64,000 nucleotides of DNA from Candidatus Poribacteria bacterium (GTDB taxonomy: Bacteria; Poribacteria; WGA-4E; PCPOR2b). The notes under the pieces are model-generated. The model worked only from the letters and a program-made list of their open reading frames with translations, was not told the DNA's origin and searched no databases. The stretch is from NCBI GenBank assembly GCA_965218095.1, contig OZ244587.1:3072001-3136000 (forward strand). Direction: 5' to 3'. Each line of letters opens with the position of its first letter. Within the stretch, counting starts at the first letter, position 1. Positions 28,226 to 37,475 of this stretch are shown here, piece by piece. Position numbers and translations under genes: made by a program.

Positions 28226-30346
28226 ATGAGACAAAGTGACTTTAACCACAAACTCAAAGCCCTGCAGCAGCGGGTGGCTGAACTGCGACAGCGTACAACG
28301 AAGGTCCCCGCGCAGTTGGAACAGTTACTGCCGGAAGCCCTCGATGAATTGCACAACACGCTGGAAGAATTGCATGTCGCTGACGAGGAACTACGCGCGC
28401 AAATGGAGCGCCAGCGTTACCTCGATCTGTTCAAATTCGCCCCGGACGGGTACCTGGTGACCGATGCCGCTGGGACCATCCAGGAAGCCAACCGTGCTGG
28501 AGCGGCCCTGCTCGCTGTGGACACGGATGATCTGGTGGACAAACCGCTGGTCGTCTTCGTCGCCGAAGCAGATCGCCAAACCTTTCATACCCTACTGAAC
28601 CGAATAACGCAGTTACAGCAAGTGCACGAGTGGAACCTACGCCTGCAACCACGGGCAGGAGCGCCTTTCTACGCGGCGATTAAGGTGGCAGCCGTGCGCG
28701 ACCCACATGGGGGGGGGCTTGGTCTCCGCTGGCTGATCCGCGACACCACCGGTTGGGTCGAGACAGTGGATGCGCTGAAGGCCAGTGAAAAAAAATATCG
28801 TCTCCTTTTTGGTGAGTCCAGAGACGCCATCTATATCAACACTAGAGAAGGCAAAATTCTTGATGCCAACCGGGCAGCGTTAGATCTCTTTGGTTATGCC
28901 AGAGAAGAACTGATCGGGATGAACGTCCGGAAGCTCTATGTCCATCCCGAAGATCGAGCGGTGTTTCAGTGGAAGATTGAGCGAAAGGGATCGGTGAGGG
29001 ATTATGAAATGAAACTTCGGAAGAAGGACGGAACGGAGATGGACTGTCTGCTCACTTCAACGGCGCGTCGGGCAGCTGACGAGAGCATTCTGGGATACCA
29101 AGGCATCATCCGCGACATCACCGAGCAGATCAAGGCGGAAAAAGCACTCCATGAAAGCGAGGGGCGATTCCGCCAACTGGCGGAAAACATCCGCGAAGTT
29201 TTTTGGTTGAGTTCTCTCGATAGGAGTGAAGTCTATTTCATCAGTCCCGCGTACGAAGAAATCTGGGGCCGTAGCCGCGAGAATCTGATAGCGCAGCCGG
29301 AATCCTGGTTGGATGCCATCCATCCGGCGGATCGGGATGGCGTCTTTGCCAATTTCGAGAAACAGAAGCGTGGGGAAGTTGTCGAACACGAGTATCGGAT
29401 CGTGCGACCCAACGGGGCGATACGCTGGATTCAGGCGCAGGTCTTTCCGGTCCGGGACGAAGCAGGCGAGATCTACCGCCTCGCGGGAAGCGCCCAAGAC
29501 ATCACCAAGCGAAAACAGGCAGAGGAACTCGCAGAGTTGCAGCAGCAACAGTTGATTCAGGCGGACAAAATGGCGTCACTTGGAATTTTGGTCTCCGGGG
29601 TGGCGCATGAGATTAATAACCCGAATAACTTTATCATGCTCAACGGAGAAATCCTCTCCATGGCCTGGCAGAACGTTATGCCAATCCTCCAAAAATACTA
29701 TCAGGAGAATGGCGACTTCCTTTTGGCGGGTATGCCCTACACCCGGGCGCACGAGAAAATCGGTCAATTGATTTCGGGAATCTCAGAAGGCGCAGCGCGC
29801 ATTGGGAAAATTGTCGAGACCCTCAGAGGTTTTGCGCGTCAGGATACGGGCGATCTAGATCAACAGGTTGACGTTAATTCGGTTATCGAATCTGCAATTG
29901 TCATTGTGAGCAACCTGATCAAGAAATCAACCCATCGTTTTTCTGTTGAGCTGGTGGAAAACTTACCCAAAATTCGGGGAAACCCACAGCAGCTTGAACA
30001 GGTTATCATCAATTTAATCACCAATTCATGCCAGGCCATCCGAGCTCCCCAAAAGCGCCTTGTGGTCTCAACGTCGTATAACAAAAGGTCGGACCGGATT
30101 ATTATCAGAGTTCTTGATGAGGGAGAAGGGATACCTCCTGAAAATTTGAATCATATCATCGAACCCTTTTTTACCACCAAACGGGACGAAGGCGGCACGG
30201 GTTTAGGCCTGTCGGTCTCTTATAATATCGTGAAGAACCATGGGGGAAATCTACATTTCACTTCAAGATTCGGCAAAGGAACGGCAGCCACTATCACACT
30301 GCCTTCTTCTCATCATCTCACTTTTGAAACGGAGGTGAACCCATGA
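28226..30346 (+). CDS. Cytoplasmic multi-PAS sensor histidine kinase (NtrB-like)
   Basis: N-terminal coiled coil, three PAS/PAC, GVAHEINNP H-box, EPFFTTK...GTGLGL; no TM segment. Confidence 0.95.
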   Translation: MRQSDFNHKLKALQQRVAELRQRTTKVPAQLEQLLPEALDELHNTLEELHVADEELRAQMERQRYLDLFKFAPDGYLVTDAAGTIQEANRAGAALLAVDTDDLVDKPLVVFVAEADRQTFHTLLNRITQLQQVHEWNLRLQPRAGAPFYAAIKVAAVRDPHGGGLGLRWLIRDTTGWVETVDALKASEKKYRLLFGESRDAIYINTREGKILDANRAALDLFGYAREELIGMNVRKLYVHPEDRAVFQWKIERKGSVRDYEMKLRKKDGTEMDCLLTSTARRAADESILGYQGIIRDITEQIKAEKALHESEGRFRQLAENIREVFWLSSLDRSEVYFISPAYEEIWGRSRENLIAQPESWLDAIHPADRDGVFANFEKQKRGEVVEHEYRIVRPNGAIRWIQAQVFPVRDEAGEIYRLAGSAQDITKRKQAEELAELQQQQLIQADKMASLGILVSGVAHEINNPNNFIMLNGEILSMAWQNVMPILQKYYQENGDFLLAGMPYTRAHEKIGQLISGISEGAARIGKIVETLRGFARQDTGDLDQQVDVNSVIESAIVIVSNLIKKSTHRFSVELVENLPKIRGNPQQLEQVIINLITNSCQAIRAPQKRLVVSTSYNKRSDRIIIRVLDEGEGIPPENLNHIIEPFFTTKRDEGGTGLGLSVSYNIVKNHGGNLHFTSRFGKGTAATITLPSSHHLTFETEVNP

Positions 30347-31782
30347 ATCCGGCCACTTTTCCCACTCTTCCTGTTTTACTGGTGGATGATGAAGCACAGT
30401 TTCTGTTCAGCGCCAGTTTGAGTCTGAGTTCGGAAGGCATTAATAATGTCGTGCAATGTCAAGATAGCCGCGATGTGATGTCGACGCTTTCCGAACAAGA
30501 TTTCTCCGTCGTTGTGCTGGATATGCTGATGCCGTACCTATCGGGCTGGGAGCTGCTCCCGATGATTGTGAGAGATTTCCCAGATCTCCCGGCGATCATC
30601 ATCACGGCGGTCAATGAAGTCAAGACGGCCGTCGAGTGCATGAAACAGGGGACGTTCGATTATCTGGTTAAACCTGTTGACAAAGCACGTTTAGTCACGA
30701 CAGTCAAACGAGCGATAGAGGTCCGGGAATTACGAGATGAGAACCTCCGGCTCAAGAACTACCTGCTCTCCGACAAGCTGGAGCAGCCCAAAGCGTTTTC
30801 CGAAATGATTACCCAGGACCCTGTAATGCGGACTATTTTCCAATATGTCGAGGCGATTGCCGGGAACGCTCTGCCGGTACTGGTTACCGGGGAAACCGGT
30901 GTGGGTAAGGAACTGATTGCCAGAGCAATCCACCAACTCAGTGGTCGAATTGGTGAGTTAATTACCGTCAATGTGGCTGGGCTGGATGACCACCTGTTTT
31001 CAGATACCCTCTTTGGACATAAAAAAGGGGCTTTTACTGGAGCAGATACAGCGCGTAAAGGATTGGTTGAACAAGCGTCGGGTGGCACACTGTTCCTGGA
31101 TGAAATCGGAGACCTCAACATGGAATCGCAGGTCAAGCTGTTGCGCCTTCTGCAGGAAGGAAAGTATTACCCTTTGGGTGAAGATGTGCCGAAAGTGACC
31201 GATGCCAGAATTATCGTTGCAACGAACCGGGAGATTGAATCCTCAATGGAGGCAGGAACGTTTCGTAAAGACCTCTACTATCGACTTCAAACCCATCATA
31301 TTCACCTGCCGCCGCTTCGCGACCGACGCAATGACCTCCCGTTGCTGGTCGAACGCTTCCTTGAAAAAGCGGCGGAGCAACTTGGTAAAAACAAGCCTAC
31401 GCCGCCCACGGAACTCTTTACGTTGCTTAGGACCTATCACTTTCCCGGAAATATCAGGGAGCTTGAGAGCATGATTTTTGATGCCGTTAGCAGACACAAG
31501 GGAGGCGTTCTCTCCATGGAATCTTTCAGGGGCAAAATCGGTCAGAAGTCCCCTACGCATCACACAGGTGAAGCGGAGAGCGGGGGAGACAAACAACCTT
31601 TATTCACAGAGCTATTACCGACTTTGGATCAATTGCCCGCCTTGAAAGATGCTGAACAACTGCTGATTGCAGAAGCCCTCAAGCGTTCCGACGGAAACCA
31701 GACGATTGCCGCCCAACTTTTGGGCATGTCGAGACAGGCATTGCACAATCGTTTGCGTCGATCTCGTCAGTCTCCAGCGTAG
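30343..31782 (+). CDS. Sigma54-dependent response regulator (NtrC/AtoC family)
   Basis: Receiver, GETGVGKE, GAFTGA, FPGNIREL, Fis-type HTH. Confidence 0.96.
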   Translation: MNPATFPTLPVLLVDDEAQFLFSASLSLSSEGINNVVQCQDSRDVMSTLSEQDFSVVVLDMLMPYLSGWELLPMIVRDFPDLPAIIITAVNEVKTAVECMKQGTFDYLVKPVDKARLVTTVKRAIEVRELRDENLRLKNYLLSDKLEQPKAFSEMITQDPVMRTIFQYVEAIAGNALPVLVTGETGVGKELIARAIHQLSGRIGELITVNVAGLDDHLFSDTLFGHKKGAFTGADTARKGLVEQASGGTLFLDEIGDLNMESQVKLLRLLQEGKYYPLGEDVPKVTDARIIVATNREIESSMEAGTFRKDLYYRLQTHHIHLPPLRDRRNDLPLLVERFLEKAAEQLGKNKPTPPTELFTLLRTYHFPGNIRELESMIFDAVSRHKGGVLSMESFRGKIGQKSPTHHTGEAESGGDKQPLFTELLPTLDQLPALKDAEQLLIAEALKRSDGNQTIAAQLLGMSRQALHNRLRRSRQSPA

Positions 31783-31885
31783 CGAGATCCCGCCAAGCGG
31801 GGTGGGCCAATGGCTGATTTTAGCCAACTACACCCACTGCATTCCCCAACCCTTCTACCCGATATTCTCTATCTCTCAAAGGGAT

Positions 31886-31919
31886 GACACATCTGTTTCT
31901 TTGGGAAACATTTGTTTCC
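31886..31919. promoter_or_regulatory. Candidate upstream activator sites
   Basis: Tandem palindromes GACACATCTGTTTC and GGAAACATTTGTTTCC about 240 bp upstream of the -24/-12 promoter. Confidence 0.4.
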
Positions 31920-32144
31920 ATCCCCCCAATCCTTGCTTTGAGAAGGGTTCGCGAGACCTCCACCCTAAACTGTCCCTCCATCCGTGTCACCCCTTTTAGT
32001 CCCTTCCCCTTGTTTCATTTCCTGCAAGTGACTACACTTACGTGAGTTCGACGTAAGAATTCTGCGTAAGCGGGTGAACGAGAGAACGGGGGAACAAGGG
32101 AGCGAAAAAGAGCACCTCCTCACACACTTGCTCCCTCACACACT

Positions 32145-32161
32145 TTGGCAGACGTTTTGCA
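32145..32161 (+). promoter_or_regulatory. Sigma54 (-24/-12) promoter for ferritin
   Basis: TTGGCAGACGTTTTGCA, canonical GG-N10-GC spacing, next to a sigma54 activator gene. Confidence 0.75.
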
Positions 32162-32234
32162 CATAGCGTAACAGACTTCCTCCTGAGAGGAGTGAACAGG
32201 TACTCAAATAATAAAAGAGAGGAACGAGACAACC

Positions 32235-32732
32235 ATGTTAGACCCGGTCAACCAGGATGCGCTCAACAAACAGATTAACCATGAATTCTACTCCACCTAT
32301 TTCTATCTTTCGATGTCAGCCTACTTTGAGACGCTTAATTTGCGGGGCTTTGCGCATTGGATGCGGATGCAGAGTCAGGAGGAGACATCGCACGCGATGA
32401 AGCTGTTTGACTACATCCACGACAGGAACGGACATGTGGTGCTTGAAGCAATTACCCAGCCGCCTGTAGAATTCCAGTCTCCGATAGATGCGTTCCAGCA
32501 GGCGTTGGCGCATGAGCGCAAAGTCACAGAGACCATCCATCGGCTCTACGGGTTGGCGGTGCAAGAGAAGGACTACGAAACCCAGGTGGAGCTACAGTGG
32601 TTTATTGCAGAGCAAGTAGAAGAAGAAAAGCAAGCACGCCAGATATTGGATCAGTTGAAGCTGATTGGCGATCACGGGGCGGCTTTGTACCTGTTGGACA
32701 AAGAGTTAGGTGAGCGTGCGATGGACAGTTAA
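32235..32732 (+). CDS. ftnA: Non-heme ferritin
   Basis: QINHEFYS..YLSMS, EETSHAMK, LQWFIAEQVEEE. Confidence 0.95.
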   Translation: MLDPVNQDALNKQINHEFYSTYFYLSMSAYFETLNLRGFAHWMRMQSQEETSHAMKLFDYIHDRNGHVVLEAITQPPVEFQSPIDAFQQALAHERKVTETIHRLYGLAVQEKDYETQVELQWFIAEQVEEEKQARQILDQLKLIGDHGAALYLLDKELGERAMDS

Positions 32733-32751
32733 ACAGTGGATATTGTGTCAC

Positions 32752-32767
32752 TTGGCACGCATTTGCT
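32752..32767 (+). promoter_or_regulatory. Sigma54-like element with non-canonical spacing
   Basis: TTGGCACGCATTTGCT: consensus boxes but GG-N9-GC, one base short. Confidence 0.4.
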
Positions 32768-32777
32768 CAATATACTG

Positions 32778-33811
32778 CGAATCGGTAGATTTTTACCGAG
32801 TTTTGACAGCGTAGACATTTAATAAGCAACCACAAGTGAGTGTTTAAAATGCCACCAAAAAGAGAGTGACTTGTGCGAGCTTCCTTTGAATCTATCTCTG
32901 GAAGTTCGGCAGCCGGGACGACCTCCTACCCTGGCTAAAGTCGTCCATCCAACAGAAAAGCTGACACAAGTCATAAACTGTGTTCAAGTAGATGTTTTGA
33001 AGATTTCACCGTTTGCGTAGTGGCGTAAGAGAAGAACCTGGGCATATATTTCACCGATTCCTCTTTTCCACCAACAGCGCAAGTGAAAAGTGATAAAGTG
33101 TCTGAAGTGAGCACACCTTTCCACCTTCAAAGACAGAAAAGCAAGGATTGCTTGCTTCGCTTCAGGCGTTTTATCTTCTCTTACCACTTATCTCACAACC
33201 GAGATTAATCTTTGGCCGACCAGAGAGGAGGCCATACAAATGAAGATTTTTAAGCCGCATGTCAGGGAGGGAAATGTCGAAGGTCACCCCTCCGGGAGGT
33301 CGGACCCGACGACAGATTACCACCCTCCCATACGAAAACGGTTGGAAGCAATTTCGGTGGAAATCGGATGGGGAGCCAGAAGCCCGCCCACCTGAATATG
33401 TCGGGCAAATATAGGTACATTGCTTACATAGCTTATGATGGATTGTCGTGGCGATTTCGTTGAGCACGGCACAAAGTGACTGCATTGCCGCTACGATCCA
33501 TCAGACTAATTTAGGCGGAGCACCTGCCGGCGATAGTGCTAAGGCAGACAATTTCACAGATTTGGGTAATGAGAGGTGAGAGGTTCGCCAAGAGGCTGTT
33601 TACCCATTGTAGACTGGAAAACCCCGATCCCACTTCGGGGTATCCCGAACTTGACTGACGATGATGAATATCTAGCATAGTTTCGGGTGATGGTGCCTAA
33701 GCCTCAAGGCGAATTGGGGACCCGAGGACAGGAGTCGTACGCGGGGCGATCTGACTGTCTAGCACGAAAAGGAGTGAAGCACCGATAACTGTCTGTTGGT
33801 GCTTTTTTTTT
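32778..33811 (+). ncRNA. Putative large (~1 kb) structured non-coding RNA, family not recognised
   Basis: No convincing CDS; many helices incl. 33092-33110/33157-33175 (19 bp, 4 G·U) and 33436-33454/33485-33503 (18 of 19 paired, 3 G·U); ends in an intrinsic terminator; 5' end inferred. Confidence 0.7.
33777..33811 (+). terminator. Rho-independent terminator
   Basis: AAGCACCGATA/TGTTGGTGCTT stem ending in a run of 9 T. Confidence 0.8.
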
Positions 33812-34067
33812 AAGAGGAAATATCAGAAAGAACAGGGCGAATTATGGATACTTTAACACAAACTCCCGACCACGACGTGCTTCGCTGGATGGGAATTGGC
33901 GAAGTTTATGAAGCGAAGTCCGATCCGACGAGCACGGCTTTATCTGAGTCCTTGGATCGGCGCTCAATTTGGGACATGCCGGAGACACTGCAGTGACGAA
34001 GTAGATGCGAATCTGTTCCACCGAGAGTGTGCTCATACTGAGTCCAACCTTATCCCCGCCACCCATC

Positions 34068-34101
34068 CGTGTTATTTGCCCGAACGTGTTATTTGCCCGA
34101 A
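34068..34101. repeat. Exact 17-bp tandem duplication
   Basis: CGTGTTATTTGCCCGAA x2. Confidence 0.9.
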
Positions 34102-34110
34102 ACGGTCTAT

Positions 34111-34509
34111 ATGGAAAATATGGAAAGAAAACATCTCCTTGTAGTTGATGATGAGCGAAACATGCTTCAGACCCTTAAGTTTATTCTGGAAACAGCAAAT
34201 TACAGAGTCACGACAGCCGTAGATGGTCAGGAGGCTTTGGAAGAGATATTGGCGGCACAGGAGAGTTACAGACCGATCAATCTTCTCATCACGGATATTC
34301 GGATGCCGGGTTTAACCGGGCTTCAATTGATTGACGAACTGAATTACCTGAACATCAAAATGCCTATCCTGGTGATCACCGCATATGGGGATAAGACATT
34401 GTTTATTAAACTCATGCGTGCAGGCTGCGCGGACTACCTTGACAAACCATTTGATTCCAGAGAGCTTGTTAGGCGCGTGGGCTTGCTTGTGGAGAGAGCA
34501 GAAACTTAG
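34111..34509 (+). CDS. Single-domain response regulator (receiver)
   Basis: LLVVDDE, ITDIRMPG, ITAYG, KPF; start 34111 or 34120. Confidence 0.9.
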   Translation: MENMERKHLLVVDDERNMLQTLKFILETANYRVTTAVDGQEALEEILAAQESYRPINLLITDIRMPGLTGLQLIDELNYLNIKMPILVITAYGDKTLFIKLMRAGCADYLDKPFDSRELVRRVGLLVERAET

Positions 34510-34675
34510 GCGCAAGACAGCGAGGTTTCCCATTAGCTGAACAATGAACAGAAGGAAAGCGGACTTTTAAGTCCAGATGGCGAGTGGTTCATCAATTTTC
34601 GACAGATCGCTCAAGATTTTGTGTTTGTACGATTAACCCCGTTTCAAAAATAAACCTTATGAAAGGAGAACCCTC

Positions 34676-35470
34676 ATGGCAGTCATCACTGTTTCCAGAG
34701 AATACGGGAGCCGTGGCGAACAAATCGCCCAACAGGTTGCCGAAGACTTAGGGTATAACTCTTTCGATAAAGAGATCCTCGCAGAGGTGGCGCGCGCCGC
34801 CAACACAACCGAAGAACAGATTAGACGGTATGACGAGAAGAATGAGAACGGGTTTCGTGGTTTCCTAAAGAAACTCTTTGTGCCAGAGTTCTCACGATAC
34901 CTTGATTTTCCGTATTATTACTACCCATCGGAATTTCTCATGGAATACTCTCCCGTTGGGAGGGAGCCAGCAATTGAGGATGAGCCGATTCCGACTGAGG
35001 AGGAAGCCCTCACGTTTTTGCGGCATGTCATTGAGAAGTTGTGGAAGCGTGATAATGTCGTCATCGTCGGACGTGGCAGCCAGATGATTCTTGCCGACAA
35101 GCCGAATACCCTTCACCTCCGTTTCATGGCACCTGTTGCGGATCGCATTGAACAAGTCATGAAGGATGAAGGGGTCGTGTATCCGAGGGCTTTGAAAGAA
35201 ATCGAAACTATCGACAAGCAACGCGCCCGCTATCTCAAACATTACTACGATGCCGATTGGGCGGATGCAACGCACTACGACCTGGTGCTAAATACCGGAA
35301 CAATGAGCCTTGAACAGGCGACAAAAGTCATCATCACCGCCATCGGCCATCAGGAAAATGAGCCCCAAGGCGGTAGACCGGTGGAAACATGGGGTGAGCC
35401 AGACCAAAGCTCATTTTCCACTCTTGTCTCCCACGCTCCCGCGAGCACACTCAGATTCAACGAGGGTTGA
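34676..35470 (+). CDS. Cytidylate kinase-like family protein
   Basis: VITVSREYGSRG, VVIVGRG, YDLVLNT. Confidence 0.88.
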   Translation: MAVITVSREYGSRGEQIAQQVAEDLGYNSFDKEILAEVARAANTTEEQIRRYDEKNENGFRGFLKKLFVPEFSRYLDFPYYYYPSEFLMEYSPVGREPAIEDEPIPTEEEALTFLRHVIEKLWKRDNVVIVGRGSQMILADKPNTLHLRFMAPVADRIEQVMKDEGVVYPRALKEIETIDKQRARYLKHYYDADWADATHYDLVLNTGTMSLEQATKVIITAIGHQENEPQGGRPVETWGEPDQSSFSTLVSHAPASTLRFNEG

Positions 35471-35519
35471 GGGAAAAATAGCAACCTTAATATGAGAAAG
35501 TGAATGAGGAGGAACGCTA

Positions 35520-35775
35520 ATGGACGCCAACGTTCGTCACAGAGGTGGCGTCATTATTTTGAAACTCAGCGGTGAGATTATTAAACAATGTTGGTGATCT
35601 CCGAAATGTAATTTATGAGCAACTTGCCAATGTCAAAGGGGCGCCCAAATTTCTGTTTGATTTCGCTGATGTCTCAATGATTGACAGTGCTGGGTTCGGA
35701 ACGCTAATCGGAACGCTAATGGGAATACACGTATTTATTATACCCAGTGGGCGTACCGTTTGGGGCATTGAGTAG
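35520..35775 (+). pseudogene. Frameshifted STAS anti-sigma-factor antagonist
   Basis: SD GAGGAGG, MDANVRHRGGVIILKLSGEI, shift to ...FDFADVSMIDSAGFGTL; 12-bp duplication 35697-35720; truncated. Confidence 0.75.
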
Positions 35776-35927
35776 GTGAGTCTAAGGCAGGTGAATGTCA
35801 TTCCCTTGAAGGTTGCAGCCGGTGGCAACGGCAGTGATTTTCGATAGGTCACGCTAAATTCGCTCACACCCACAGGCTGCTGACCGGGCCGTAACATAAT
35901 GATTTAGAAGCCTCTAAGGAGGAAGCA

Positions 35928-36350
35928 ATGAATGCGCGTACGTTGTATTCAGCAATTGAGACCTTGAATCCCAATCGTCCCTGTTGCGTGGAGGTCGGCA
36001 CATCGGTTTCAGATGCGATCGACCGCATGCAGGAAGGACGATTCAGCTATATATTGGTTGTTGAGAAACAACAGCTCGTCGGTATCATTACGGAGCGTGA
36101 TCTGTCAGCGGTTATCGTGGGGCTGCGCATAAATCCAGCCGATGTGGTTGTGGATGATATTATGACCATATCACCGGAGACGCTTCGCCCGGAAGATCCG
36201 ATTGTATTTGCTCTAAATCTGATGCACTTAGGCCGATACCGCCATATCGCTTTGCTCGATGACGAAAATGGTTATCCCATAGGGATTGTCTCAAGTAAGG
36301 ATATTTTGAACCACATCGCTGCGTTTTTGGAGACAAGTCAGGAGGGATGA
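35928..36350 (+). CDS. CBS-pair protein
   Basis: LVGIITERD, GRYRHI, PIGIVS. Confidence 0.9.
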   Translation: MNARTLYSAIETLNPNRPCCVEVGTSVSDAIDRMQEGRFSYILVVEKQQLVGIITERDLSAVIVGLRINPADVVVDDIMTISPETLRPEDPIVFALNLMHLGRYRHIALLDDENGYPIGIVSSKDILNHIAAFLETSQEG

Positions 36351-36353
36351 AGC

Positions 36354-36893
36354 ATGCTTTATGAACAGGTTATTGATGAAGAAATTACCATCATGGAGGA
36401 AATGCCTGATGAGCTGTCAAAAACCCTGAGCCCACAAGAAATCCGTGTGCCGCTCCGTTCTCTGATGCGGCCGGCGATAACGGTTGAAATGAACACAAGT
36501 ACACTCAATGCAGCCGATCTGATGATCGCCAATGCTGTCGGTTATGTCCTGATTGTATCCGAAGGCGTTCTCACAGGAATTTTCGGAGAACGAGATATTT
36601 TGCTAAAAATCCTCAACAAGCCGGTTGGAGATCTCGCACAAATTCCTGTCGAATACTTTATGAAAACCGATCCGCAAACCTTAGATGCTGAGGATTATCT
36701 CGACACGGCAATATTGTTCATGGCGAAAGGCGGCTACCGACACCTCCCCATTGTAAATACACAAAATCGGCCAGTTGGAATGGTGTCGATTCGCCATATT
36801 ATCTCTTATCTGGTTGAACATTTCCCTCAAGACGTGTTAACGCTGCCGCCGAAACCCATTCGTGAGGTAATGCAAGCCCGCGAAGGTGCTTAA
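36354..36893 (+). CDS. CBS-pair protein
   Basis: LTGIFGERD, GGYRHLPIV, PVGMVSIR. Confidence 0.9.
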   Translation: MLYEQVIDEEITIMEEMPDELSKTLSPQEIRVPLRSLMRPAITVEMNTSTLNAADLMIANAVGYVLIVSEGVLTGIFGERDILLKILNKPVGDLAQIPVEYFMKTDPQTLDAEDYLDTAILFMAKGGYRHLPIVNTQNRPVGMVSIRHIISYLVEHFPQDVLTLPPKPIREVMQAREGA

Positions 36894-36917
36894 ACCGTAA
36901 ATCTTAGAAAGGGTGAA

Positions 36918-37475
36918 TTGACTGTGATTTTAGCAGAAACCTTTGATTTATGTCAAGACATTGAACTGAGACACGCAAAGCTATATGCGACGCTATCTCT
37001 CCAATTGGGAAATGTCGATGAACGAGTTGCCCGATTTTGGCGGCAGACGAGCGCGGAGGAGTGGCAGCACCATCTCCTGGTTGGTTTTGGACGCTCGTTC
37101 TGTGCTAAGACTTTCGGGCTAGAGACACCTACCCCAGAATTGCCCAACGTATCTATCGAACAGATTAACGATACATTGAATGAATATGAAGAGCGTGTGA
37201 GTACAAAGCAGATCACACTCAATGAGGCATTTGAGATTGCCATTGCGATCGAAGGCGGTGAGTCAGACACAATTTATATGGAGTTGCTTTCGACCATCAG
37301 AGAGGCGATTTATCAGAGCGATCAAACCTATTTGTTGAGCCGTATCTCCCGGATTGAGAAGGATATGCAGGCTCACGTGGGTCACCTGATTGATGCCGCG
37401 AGAAGGTTTTCTCATAATCCGGATCTGGTCCGAAAAGCGCATCGCTTGACAGATCAGCATCACCACGGATTCTAG
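36918..37475 (+). CDS. Ferritin-like/rubrerythrin-like four-helix bundle protein
   Basis: IE...LY, EEWQH, AIAIE, late His; diiron-carboxylate-like pattern, partly degenerate. Confidence 0.65.
   Translation: MTVILAETFDLCQDIELRHAKLYATLSLQLGNVDERVARFWRQTSAEEWQHHLLVGFGRSFCAKTFGLETPTPELPNVSIEQINDTLNEYEERVSTKQITLNEAFEIAIAIEGGESDTIYMELLSTIREAIYQSDQTYLLSRISRIEKDMQAHVGHLIDAARRFSHNPDLVRKAHRLTDQHHHGF

Follow-up and report, generated by a model that had tools for sequence, protein, structure and literature searches.

A ~1.08-kb hairpin-rich non-coding stretch behind ferritin in a Poribacteria sponge symbiont: a candidate 3′ extension of the ferritin transcript

The described systems closest to the element treated here are the large ornate RNAs OLE, GOLLD and ROOL, long structured 3′ untranslated regions (3′ UTRs) and the RNAs derived from them, such as CpxQ from cpxP and the hilD 3′ UTR, sigma-54-dependent non-coding RNA genes, and group II introns without an open reading frame (ORF) along with other structured mobile RNAs. 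The element is a hairpin-rich stretch of ~1.08 kb on the + strand (32733..33811), which extends from the stop codon of a ferritin gene to the end of a terminator T run in the genome of a Candidatus Poribacteria sponge symbiont (assembly GCA_965218095.1). All positions are those of the window, meaning the whole 64,000 nucleotides (nt) of DNA that were analysed (contig OZ244587.1, 3,072,001 to 3,136,000). An earlier note, made from the sequence alone, had read 32778-33811 as a large ornate RNA and possibly a new family.

How this raw-sequence finding is to be read changes once the locus is compared with its counterparts in relatives. What the earlier note had missed is the context of the locus, in which the stretch appears as extra sequence between the ferritin stop codon and the T-tract of ferritin. 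Since it is extra sequence in front of a shared T-tract, an independent RNA gene is no more likely than an extension of the ferritin transcript at its 3′ end. With a probability of roughly 0.5, we consider the stretch to be a species-specific structured non-coding 3′ extension of a sigma-54-driven ferritin transcript that persists as a stable RNA. The assignment of the stretch as a feature is based on the absence of protein families in six frames, its folding, its absence from the sister-genus locus and its occurrence as a contig in an RNA library.

The ferritin locus here and in the sister genus

The gap that holds the stretch measures 1111 nt (32733-33843) and lies between ferritin and a 50-amino-acid (aa) ORF at 33844, downstream of which comes a receiver-domain gene. 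Ferritin, the upstream partner of the stretch (32235..32732, +), was identified by Pfam PF00210 with E 9e-44 and has orthologs of 73-79% identity in 13 sister-genus genomes. At E≤1e-20, orthologs were present in 14 of 41 genomes including its own, the remainder being these 13, with none in the other genera searched. The ATG of the next ORF follows ~55 nt after the ferritin stop codon at 11 of the 13 sister-genus loci, and the spacer found there (TAAACGTGG..GGTGTTTTTTT AAG..ACAGGGAGAATT ATG) aligns with the window sequence at both ends. According to the alignment with these 11 loci, the extra ~1.06 kb falls between TAAAC and the shared GGTG(C)T-run. Being located between the stop codon and the shared T-tract, the stretch therefore lies inside the ferritin transcription unit.

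The twelfth sister-genus locus contains a truncated ferritin and then the same next gene. At the thirteenth (L012, genome G014), transposase-like ORFs of 140 and 212 aa come right after ferritin, so the junction 3′ of ferritin has received insertions repeatedly. A locus lacking the stretch was also found among the sponge samples: in the RNA run X12, a contig of a ~13%-diverged ferritin joins 32710 directly to 34088, as in the sister genus. A co-resident relative without the 1.06-kb stretch is present in the same samples, and its ferritin occurs in the RNA library. Contigs of the ~13%-diverged ferritin were observed at high depth in these samples (runs X12 and X7).

The stretch could be non-functional, either what is left of mobile or foreign DNA that was inserted between ferritin and its terminator, or a gene that has decayed completely; it would then be transcribed passively and owe its hairpins to inverted repeats. 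We rate this as rather unlikely. It is supported by the occurrence of the stretch in one species only, by the different insertion (the transposase-like ORFs) at the same junction in L012, and by the neighbour gene, whose N-terminal part is decaying here and indicates a locus in flux. On the other side, no similarity to protein families (six frames), phages, plasmids or the rest of the own genome was found, terminal inverted repeats or a target duplication were not seen, and Rfam gave no group I or II intron match at E≤10. The near-identity of the stretch in DNA and RNA contigs of three studies is a further point against lack of function, but the flanking genes are equally close, so that it says little. 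A repeat or mobile element as such was rejected, as the stretch is single copy, has neither terminal inverted repeats nor a target duplication and matches no phage or plasmid.

By every test run the stretch is non-coding. The statement that this ~1 kb holds no credible gene was borne out, with no gene detectable in 32733-33811. Six read-through frames, in which stops were written as X, gave nothing credible in Pfam (one match, E 0.22) or PHROGs (one match, E 0.18) and no match in NCBIfam. The large protein collections were queried with two of the six frames, + frame 1 and − frame 1. For + frame 1, no relatives were found among proteins of 30-648 aa in a collection of 5.8 billion proteins. The − frame 1 gave a single borderline match (P0001, E 7e-4) in a representative set of 1.84 billion; this 194-aa tandem-repeat pseudo-protein was judged a chance match, the aligned 46 residues including stop positions and the score being inflated by three repeats. 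A decayed protein gene, which the earlier note had named as one of the outcomes that would refute it, was rejected in the same way: residual family similarity was absent from six frames against the three profile libraries (nothing below E 0.18), and the large collections gave no credible similarity for the two frames queried.

It is very improbable that small proteins account for the stretch, be it through a 51-codon ORF (33240..33395, +) or a 104-codon ORF (33171-33485, −). The former does have a strong ribosome-binding site, GAGGAGG, at 8-nt spacing before its ATG (33240), and in run X13 a 9-nt insertion behind 33415, thus of in-frame length, falls inside the latter. Yet the 51-codon ORF matches no family, + frame 1 is without relatives among proteins of 30-648 aa, and the one borderline match of the − frame (E 7e-4) is located outside the part occupied by the 104-codon ORF. 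The codon-usage score called neither ORF, and together they cover less than a third of the stretch. The 9-nt variant lies in an existing imperfect 9-nt tandem repeat, of which X13 carries a third copy, and slippage explains it.

The gene downstream of the stretch differs from its counterparts as well. Ferritin is followed in the sister genus by a single ORF of ~204 aa that comprises an N-terminal extension and the receiver domain. Here the extension is broken (33844-34110): its first 50 codons end at a stop, its middle has to be read in another frame to match the relatives, and two in-frame stops are present. There is also a perfect tandem duplication of 17 nt (34068-34084 / 34085-34101), and the assembly over parts of 33844-34110 agrees with contigs of three runs. 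For the receiver domain, a new start at 34069 or 34111 is probable. Further downstream, ~620-900 nt 3′ of ferritin, a small conserved ORF (..NKEEIDMLWGEASLRLKLNGFEDGLN..) separates the receiver gene from a cytidylate-kinase-like gene in the sister-genus genomes (L004-L016). This small ORF is missing here, where only 166 nt (34510-34675) are available.

Promoters, terminator and transcription unit

The stretch ends in an intrinsic terminator (33776..33811, +) consisting of a 12-pair hairpin and a run of nine T. Its claimed position, 33777-33811, agrees with the terminator scan, which found a strong hairpin at 33776-33805 followed by the T run; the fold points to the same element, and the 3′ arm and T run align with the T-tract 3′ of ferritin in the sister genus. 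This was the one strong + strand terminator detected from the ferritin stop codon up to the next ORF. A weak candidate lies inside a helix at 33149-33168. Near the start of the stretch, the minimum free energy (MFE) folds contain a 7-bp hairpin (32782..32799, +) followed by GUUUUG (to 32806), which remained below the threshold of the scan and may either form the 5′ end of a separate transcript or act as a weak terminator. Since only the weak candidate and the unflagged 7-bp hairpin precede 33776-33805, read-through from the ferritin promoter is the simplest expectation. Like a 3′ UTR, the stretch follows the stop codon of a gene, shares its strand and ends at the intrinsic terminator of that gene.

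The ferritin promoter is predicted to be of the sigma-54 type, with a −24 GG and a −12 GC element at canonical spacing (GG-N10-GC; TGGCA-N6-TTGCA) detected by motif scan at 32146..32161 (+). Such a motif was present 55-89 nt upstream of ferritin at all 13 loci examined, namely this one and 12 of the sister genus. GG-N10-GC sites are enriched in the gaps of the genome (18/32) in comparison to other spacings (8/34, 5/37, 6/21 and 1/12). Further, the genome contains rpoN, and a sigma-54 activator gene with a receiver domain is located directly upstream (30343-31782). In search listings of the literature, nothing was found on a sigma-54-controlled ferritin or on this RNA.

In the favoured explanation, transcription would start at the conserved sigma-54 promoter of ferritin (32146-32161) and, with no strong terminator after the stop codon, would read through ~1.06 kb up to the terminator at 33776-33811. 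The + strand of the extra sequence would fold into a series of hairpin domains, each of them stable locally. These domains and the terminator hairpin could hinder 3′-to-5′ decay, so that the tail would persist as a stable RNA and possibly outlive the coding part of the transcript. That the stretch is transcribed together with ferritin, that its structure stabilises it and that it has any regulatory role are inferences. A contribution to ferritin mRNA stability or a role as a 3′UTR-derived regulator is possible; the tail may also have no function at all.

A second sigma-54-like motif (32753..32767, +), likewise found by motif scan, points to a different origin of the RNA. From this motif, an independent large non-coding RNA gene of ~1.03 kb might be transcribed, starting at ~32778 with a 5′ hairpin and ending at 33811. 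Such a gene, which would have its own function and corresponds to the idea of the earlier note minus the family, we consider unlikely. The −24/−12-like motif stands at the right distance for such a start: canonical geometry would place it near 32778, the first position of the feature in the earlier note and just before the 7-bp hairpin. Moreover, the motif belongs to a block of 60-68 nt that is the only part of the stretch conserved elsewhere, and there it has canonical spacing. A change of spacing by one base is expected to inactivate sigma-54 promoters, and here the T run in the block is one base shorter than in the related sister-genus genome G021, which results in GG-N9-GC. The GG-N10-GC spacing is thus found at 32146-32161 and in the G021 block and not at 32753-32767. 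The Illumina-based RNA contig agrees with the assembly over the motif (1 other letter and 1 gap, at 33803, over 32726-33837). Short-spaced GG-N9-GC sites are not enriched in the gaps (5/37), the RNA contig of run X8 begins at 32726 and hence upstream of the putative start, and the known E. coli sigma-54 promoters listed in PMC2831329 all share one fixed register. As judged from sequence, an own promoter at 32753-32767 is possible but weakened.

The block with the motif (32736..32795, +) is the only one with a relative elsewhere, being 81% identical to an intergenic piece of G021 (55/68 identical, pairwise E 2e-10). The relative is located ~100 kb from the ferritin of that genome. In full, it comprises 68 nt (L002 1495-1562, − strand) that match window 32733-32800 and stands alone between a BamA-like and an aldo/keto reductase gene, its canonical sigma-54-like motif pointing into the BamA-like 3′ end. 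It may be the relic of a once larger unit. A ferritin remnant beside it was rejected, the upstream similarity ('LLDK') being not significant (tblastn E 2.5).

A bolder variant, which we regard as doubtful, is a young, abundant and autonomous structured RNA of ~1 kb that is unique to one uncultivated Poribacteria species, with a sigma-54-type promoter co-regulated with ferritin and an action in iron storage control or symbiosis. If true, such a young lineage-specific large RNA would be of a kind that is out of reach of conservation-based searches.

Folding and presence in RNA libraries

The helices and pseudoknot arms proposed for 32778-33811 are, all 14 of them, complementary at the positions given for them. 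In twelve of them the two arms are equally long and form 5-15 Watson-Crick pairs; in the other two the arms differ in length, and the pairing energies are −17.9 and −8.4 kcal/mol. As a description of the favoured structure, the set stood only in part. In the ensemble of 32778-33811 the mean pair probability exceeded 0.9 in five of the 14 helices and was 0.55 in one and ≤0.14 in eight, where the value for 33019-33035/33174-33188 is uninformative due to unequal arms that shift the pair register. The low-probability helices are alternatives or pseudoknot arms, which are beyond scoring by a nested fold. The helices are real as complementarity, and many are not in the favoured fold.

The count of seven G·U among eight non-Watson-Crick positions in the two 19-bp stems was correct, with 4 G·U and no mismatch in one stem and 3 G·U and 1 mismatch in the other. 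All seven wobble positions are G·U on the + strand (two-sided sign test, p ~0.016). While the bias itself is real, the selection at RNA level on the + strand that had been derived from it is one of two readings. Transcription-linked C-to-T mutation on the sense strand fits as well, and a bias of this origin could also arise in a non-functional sequence.

Over 1034 nt, the + strand folded at −343.9 kcal/mol compared to −304.7 ± 8.1 kcal/mol for the shuffles, corresponding to z −4.9, and the − strand reached z −2.8 (30 dinucleotide shuffles per strand). The shuffle comparison that had been suggested as a check thus places the + strand beyond the shuffles. All eight other long ORF-poor gaps of the genome that were folded at this length had a weaker best-strand z (+0.3 to −3.3), which also speaks for an independent gene. 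A crude gene call gave 210 gaps of at least 1 kb in the genome, with 79% coding. In five other ORF-poor gaps (G000:C1 4116898-4118218, 5611304-5612421, 351169-352703, 4024034-4025129 and 1598367-1599584), the central 400 nt showed best-strand z of −3.6 to −5.2, in one gap on both strands. Further structured non-coding regions, or else palindromic repeats, may exist in this genome.

Ten sub-domains of the + strand gave z −4.6, −4.3, −3.4, −2.9, −2.4, −2.2, −2.0, −2.0, −0.6 and +0.2, so that eight of them reached −2.0 or below. All four domains that were folded on both strands were more negative on the + strand. The strongest is a hairpin with a 19-bp stem of 15 Watson-Crick and 3 G·U pairs and 1 mismatch (33436..33503, +; mean pair probability 0.94; z −4.6 on + vs −0.9 on −). 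Next in strength is the best-defined domain, a branched one (32866..32974, +) closed by helix 32867-32875/32965-32973, in which MFE and centroid structures are identical and which served as the basis of structure model R1 (z −4.3 on + vs −2.8 on −). The other 19-bp stem, with 15 Watson-Crick and 4 G·U pairs, surrounds two small hairpins (33092..33175, +; mean pair probability 0.96; z −3.4 on + vs −1.2 on −). Sub-domain 32778-32862 with the 7-bp hairpin gave z −2.9, and two adjacent hairpins, 33621-33641 and 33644-33687 (33621..33687, +), with mean pair probabilities of 0.98 and 0.55 gave z −2.0. In these models the fold looks like a chain of locally stable + strand hairpin domains rather than a demonstrably global architecture. 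Loops similar to iron-responsive elements were rejected, the single CAGUG motif at 32734 lying outside any hairpin loop. The tetraloop-receptor motif CCUAAG occurs once, at 33696, without a UAUGG partner.

Thirteen public runs from four studies contain the stretch, four of them sponge metatranscriptomes of one study. In the latter, with 237-263 M letters each, 71-86% of the sampled words of the stretch were present. The source organism, a Candidatus Poribacteria sponge symbiont, fits this occurrence. Contigs, not raw reads, of two RNA runs (X8, X12) and two other runs were placed on 30000-37000. In X8 (RNA), a contig of 1111 nt and depth 22 covers 32726-33837, differing by 1 other letter and 1 gap; the ferritin contig (32347-32726) has depth 6.7 and the downstream contigs 4.4, 4.7 and 2.7, although contig depth cannot rank genes. 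The ratio of 22 to 6.7 is, as a weak kind of evidence, in favour of an independent gene. In X12 (RNA), the contig at 33008-33586 has depth 7.8 and the ferritin contig 5.9. X7 contains a single contig over 32043-34944 with 9 other letters, and X13 one over 32163-33127 with 0 other letters. That the X8 contig stems from plain DNA carry-over is unlikely by our own arithmetic, as the 6.35-Mb genome at depth 22 would take up ~140 M letters and thereby over half of the run. The stretch is very probably transcribed and not rare. We infer the + strand and the ends of the RNA from the terminator, the fold asymmetry and the G·U bias.

Some details of the contigs are recorded here and were not counted as evidence. 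The depth of X8 is 0 in several bins of 35382-36785, and no listed exact contig covers 33838-33935. The RNA contig ends at 32726 are not taken as a hint, as they come from one RNA study. Separately from these, the T run of the terminator is one T shorter in X8, at 33803.

Several observations weigh against the reading as a 3′ extension of the ferritin transcript. The search for a ~1 kb transcript in RNA data, proposed earlier, succeeded to the extent that the stretch is present in RNA-library contigs; these show no strand, ends or level, DNA can be present in an RNA library, and all RNA runs belong to one study. None of the listed RNA contigs bridges 32726, while DNA contigs (X7, X13) do, and the higher contig depth of the tail fits an independent promoter equally well. 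The sigma-54-like motif at the start of the stretch is the sole part conserved in another genome. As the other genera of the family lack this ferritin ortholog at E≤1e-20 and hence provide no outgroup, the stretch may equally reflect an insertion here or a deletion in the sister genus. Finally, at 400 nt the windows of the stretch (z −2.8, −3.1 and −2.2) were equalled or beaten by 5-10 of 30 other gaps; that many other long gaps fold about equally at this length is also in line with a non-functional sequence. The stretch is significantly structured and near the top of its own genome, but no lone outlier.

Homologs and comparison with known systems

The search against Rfam, proposed in the earlier note as a test of novelty, agrees with it in that the stretch matches no family. 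With cmscan and all 4227 Rfam families, nothing but one transfer RNA reached gathering scores in the window, and at E≤10 six chance-level matches only were obtained on 32600-34150, the best with E 0.44 to a plant microRNA. Likewise, none of the group I or II intron models (catalytic core, domain V) was matched at E≤10.

Homologs could not be gathered for an alignment, neither with nhmmer on the own genome nor with BLAST on the phylum. In the own genome, BLAST of the 1111 nt and nhmmer at E≤10 found the stretch itself only, i.e. a single copy. BLAST of the full 1111 nt against 40 relatives gave one 60-nt match, and against 159 genomes of the order the same match and three others of 21-41 nt (E 0.003-0.0095), which were taken as chance. 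Among 176 genomes of the phylum, two matched at E≤0.001, the own genome and G021 with the 60-nt block, and none of the other 174. Collections of phages and plasmids contained no match to the stretch. Structure model R1, a covariance model of 32860-32978 with 34 pairs, returned only itself in 151 genomes of the order; built from a single sequence and run with stricter Infernal filters, it is of limited reach. The closest ferritin loci on metagenome contigs, in a search confined to the ferritin protein, are at most 63% identical at this level and therefore too distant to be expected to carry the stretch.

On the basis of these searches, in which no further species of the genus was among the genomes, the stretch appears to be species-specific. 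The suggestion of a new family of large ornate RNA is unsupported, as no second member was found in the own genome, by BLAST in the 175 other genomes of the phylum, by the model of one domain in 150 other genomes of the order, or in the phage and plasmid collections. Covariation, the defining criterion of OLE, GOLLD and ROOL, requires homologs, and the family claim is therefore without support. Of what characterises a conserved structured-RNA family, a fold that beats the shuffles was found, and homologs with compensatory changes were not. For an independent gene, the lack of any homolog in the genomes of the phylum, and of a structural match to the one domain modelled in those of the order, likewise means that there is no evidence of selection on structure. 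The stretch is best described as a new orphan example of a feature of known kind; that it represents a new class is not demonstrated.

What follows depends on the function of the tail. If it is functional, one species of an uncultivated symbiont is enough for a large structured RNA to emerge and reach abundance, covariation-based discovery pipelines would be blind to such RNAs, and a sigma-54-controlled ferritin gene would be linked to RNA-level control in Poribacteria. If it is a passive insertion, the case shows that strong folding, G·U strand bias and presence in RNA libraries alone do not make an 'ornate RNA'.

With OLE, GOLLD and ROOL, the stretch shares the size class (>500 nt), the non-coding nature, strong folding and an apparently good representation in RNA libraries. 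It differs in that it matches none of their Rfam models even at E≤10. What defines those RNAs is conservation and covariation across many genomes; the stretch has no relative in the genomes of the phylum beyond the 60-nt block. It is further located in the 3′ region of a gene, being neither a stand-alone gene nor prophage-linked, and its fold looks like a series of hairpins formed locally.

ORF-less group II introns and structured mobile RNAs are similar in being structured, ~1 kb long and present in one lineage while absent in another. Different from these, the stretch is single copy, has no Rfam intron match at E≤10 and contains no remnants of a reverse-transcriptase or other ORF in six frames. 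Sigma-54-dependent non-coding RNA genes are resembled through the −24/−12-like motif that directly precedes the stretch and through rpoN and the adjacent activator; here, however, the spacer of the motif is one base short.

Long structured 3′ UTRs and 3′UTR-derived RNAs remain as the closest systems. Similar to them, the stretch lies between a stop codon and a shared terminator on the same strand, and its tail may accumulate above the level of the coding part. With ~1.06 kb it is several times longer than the examples named at the outset, and it would be co-transcribed with ferritin. Its length is unusual and it is very probably expressed, yet nothing indicates that its structure is under selection. 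By analogy, it would work like a long structured 3′ UTR or a 3′UTR-derived stable RNA.

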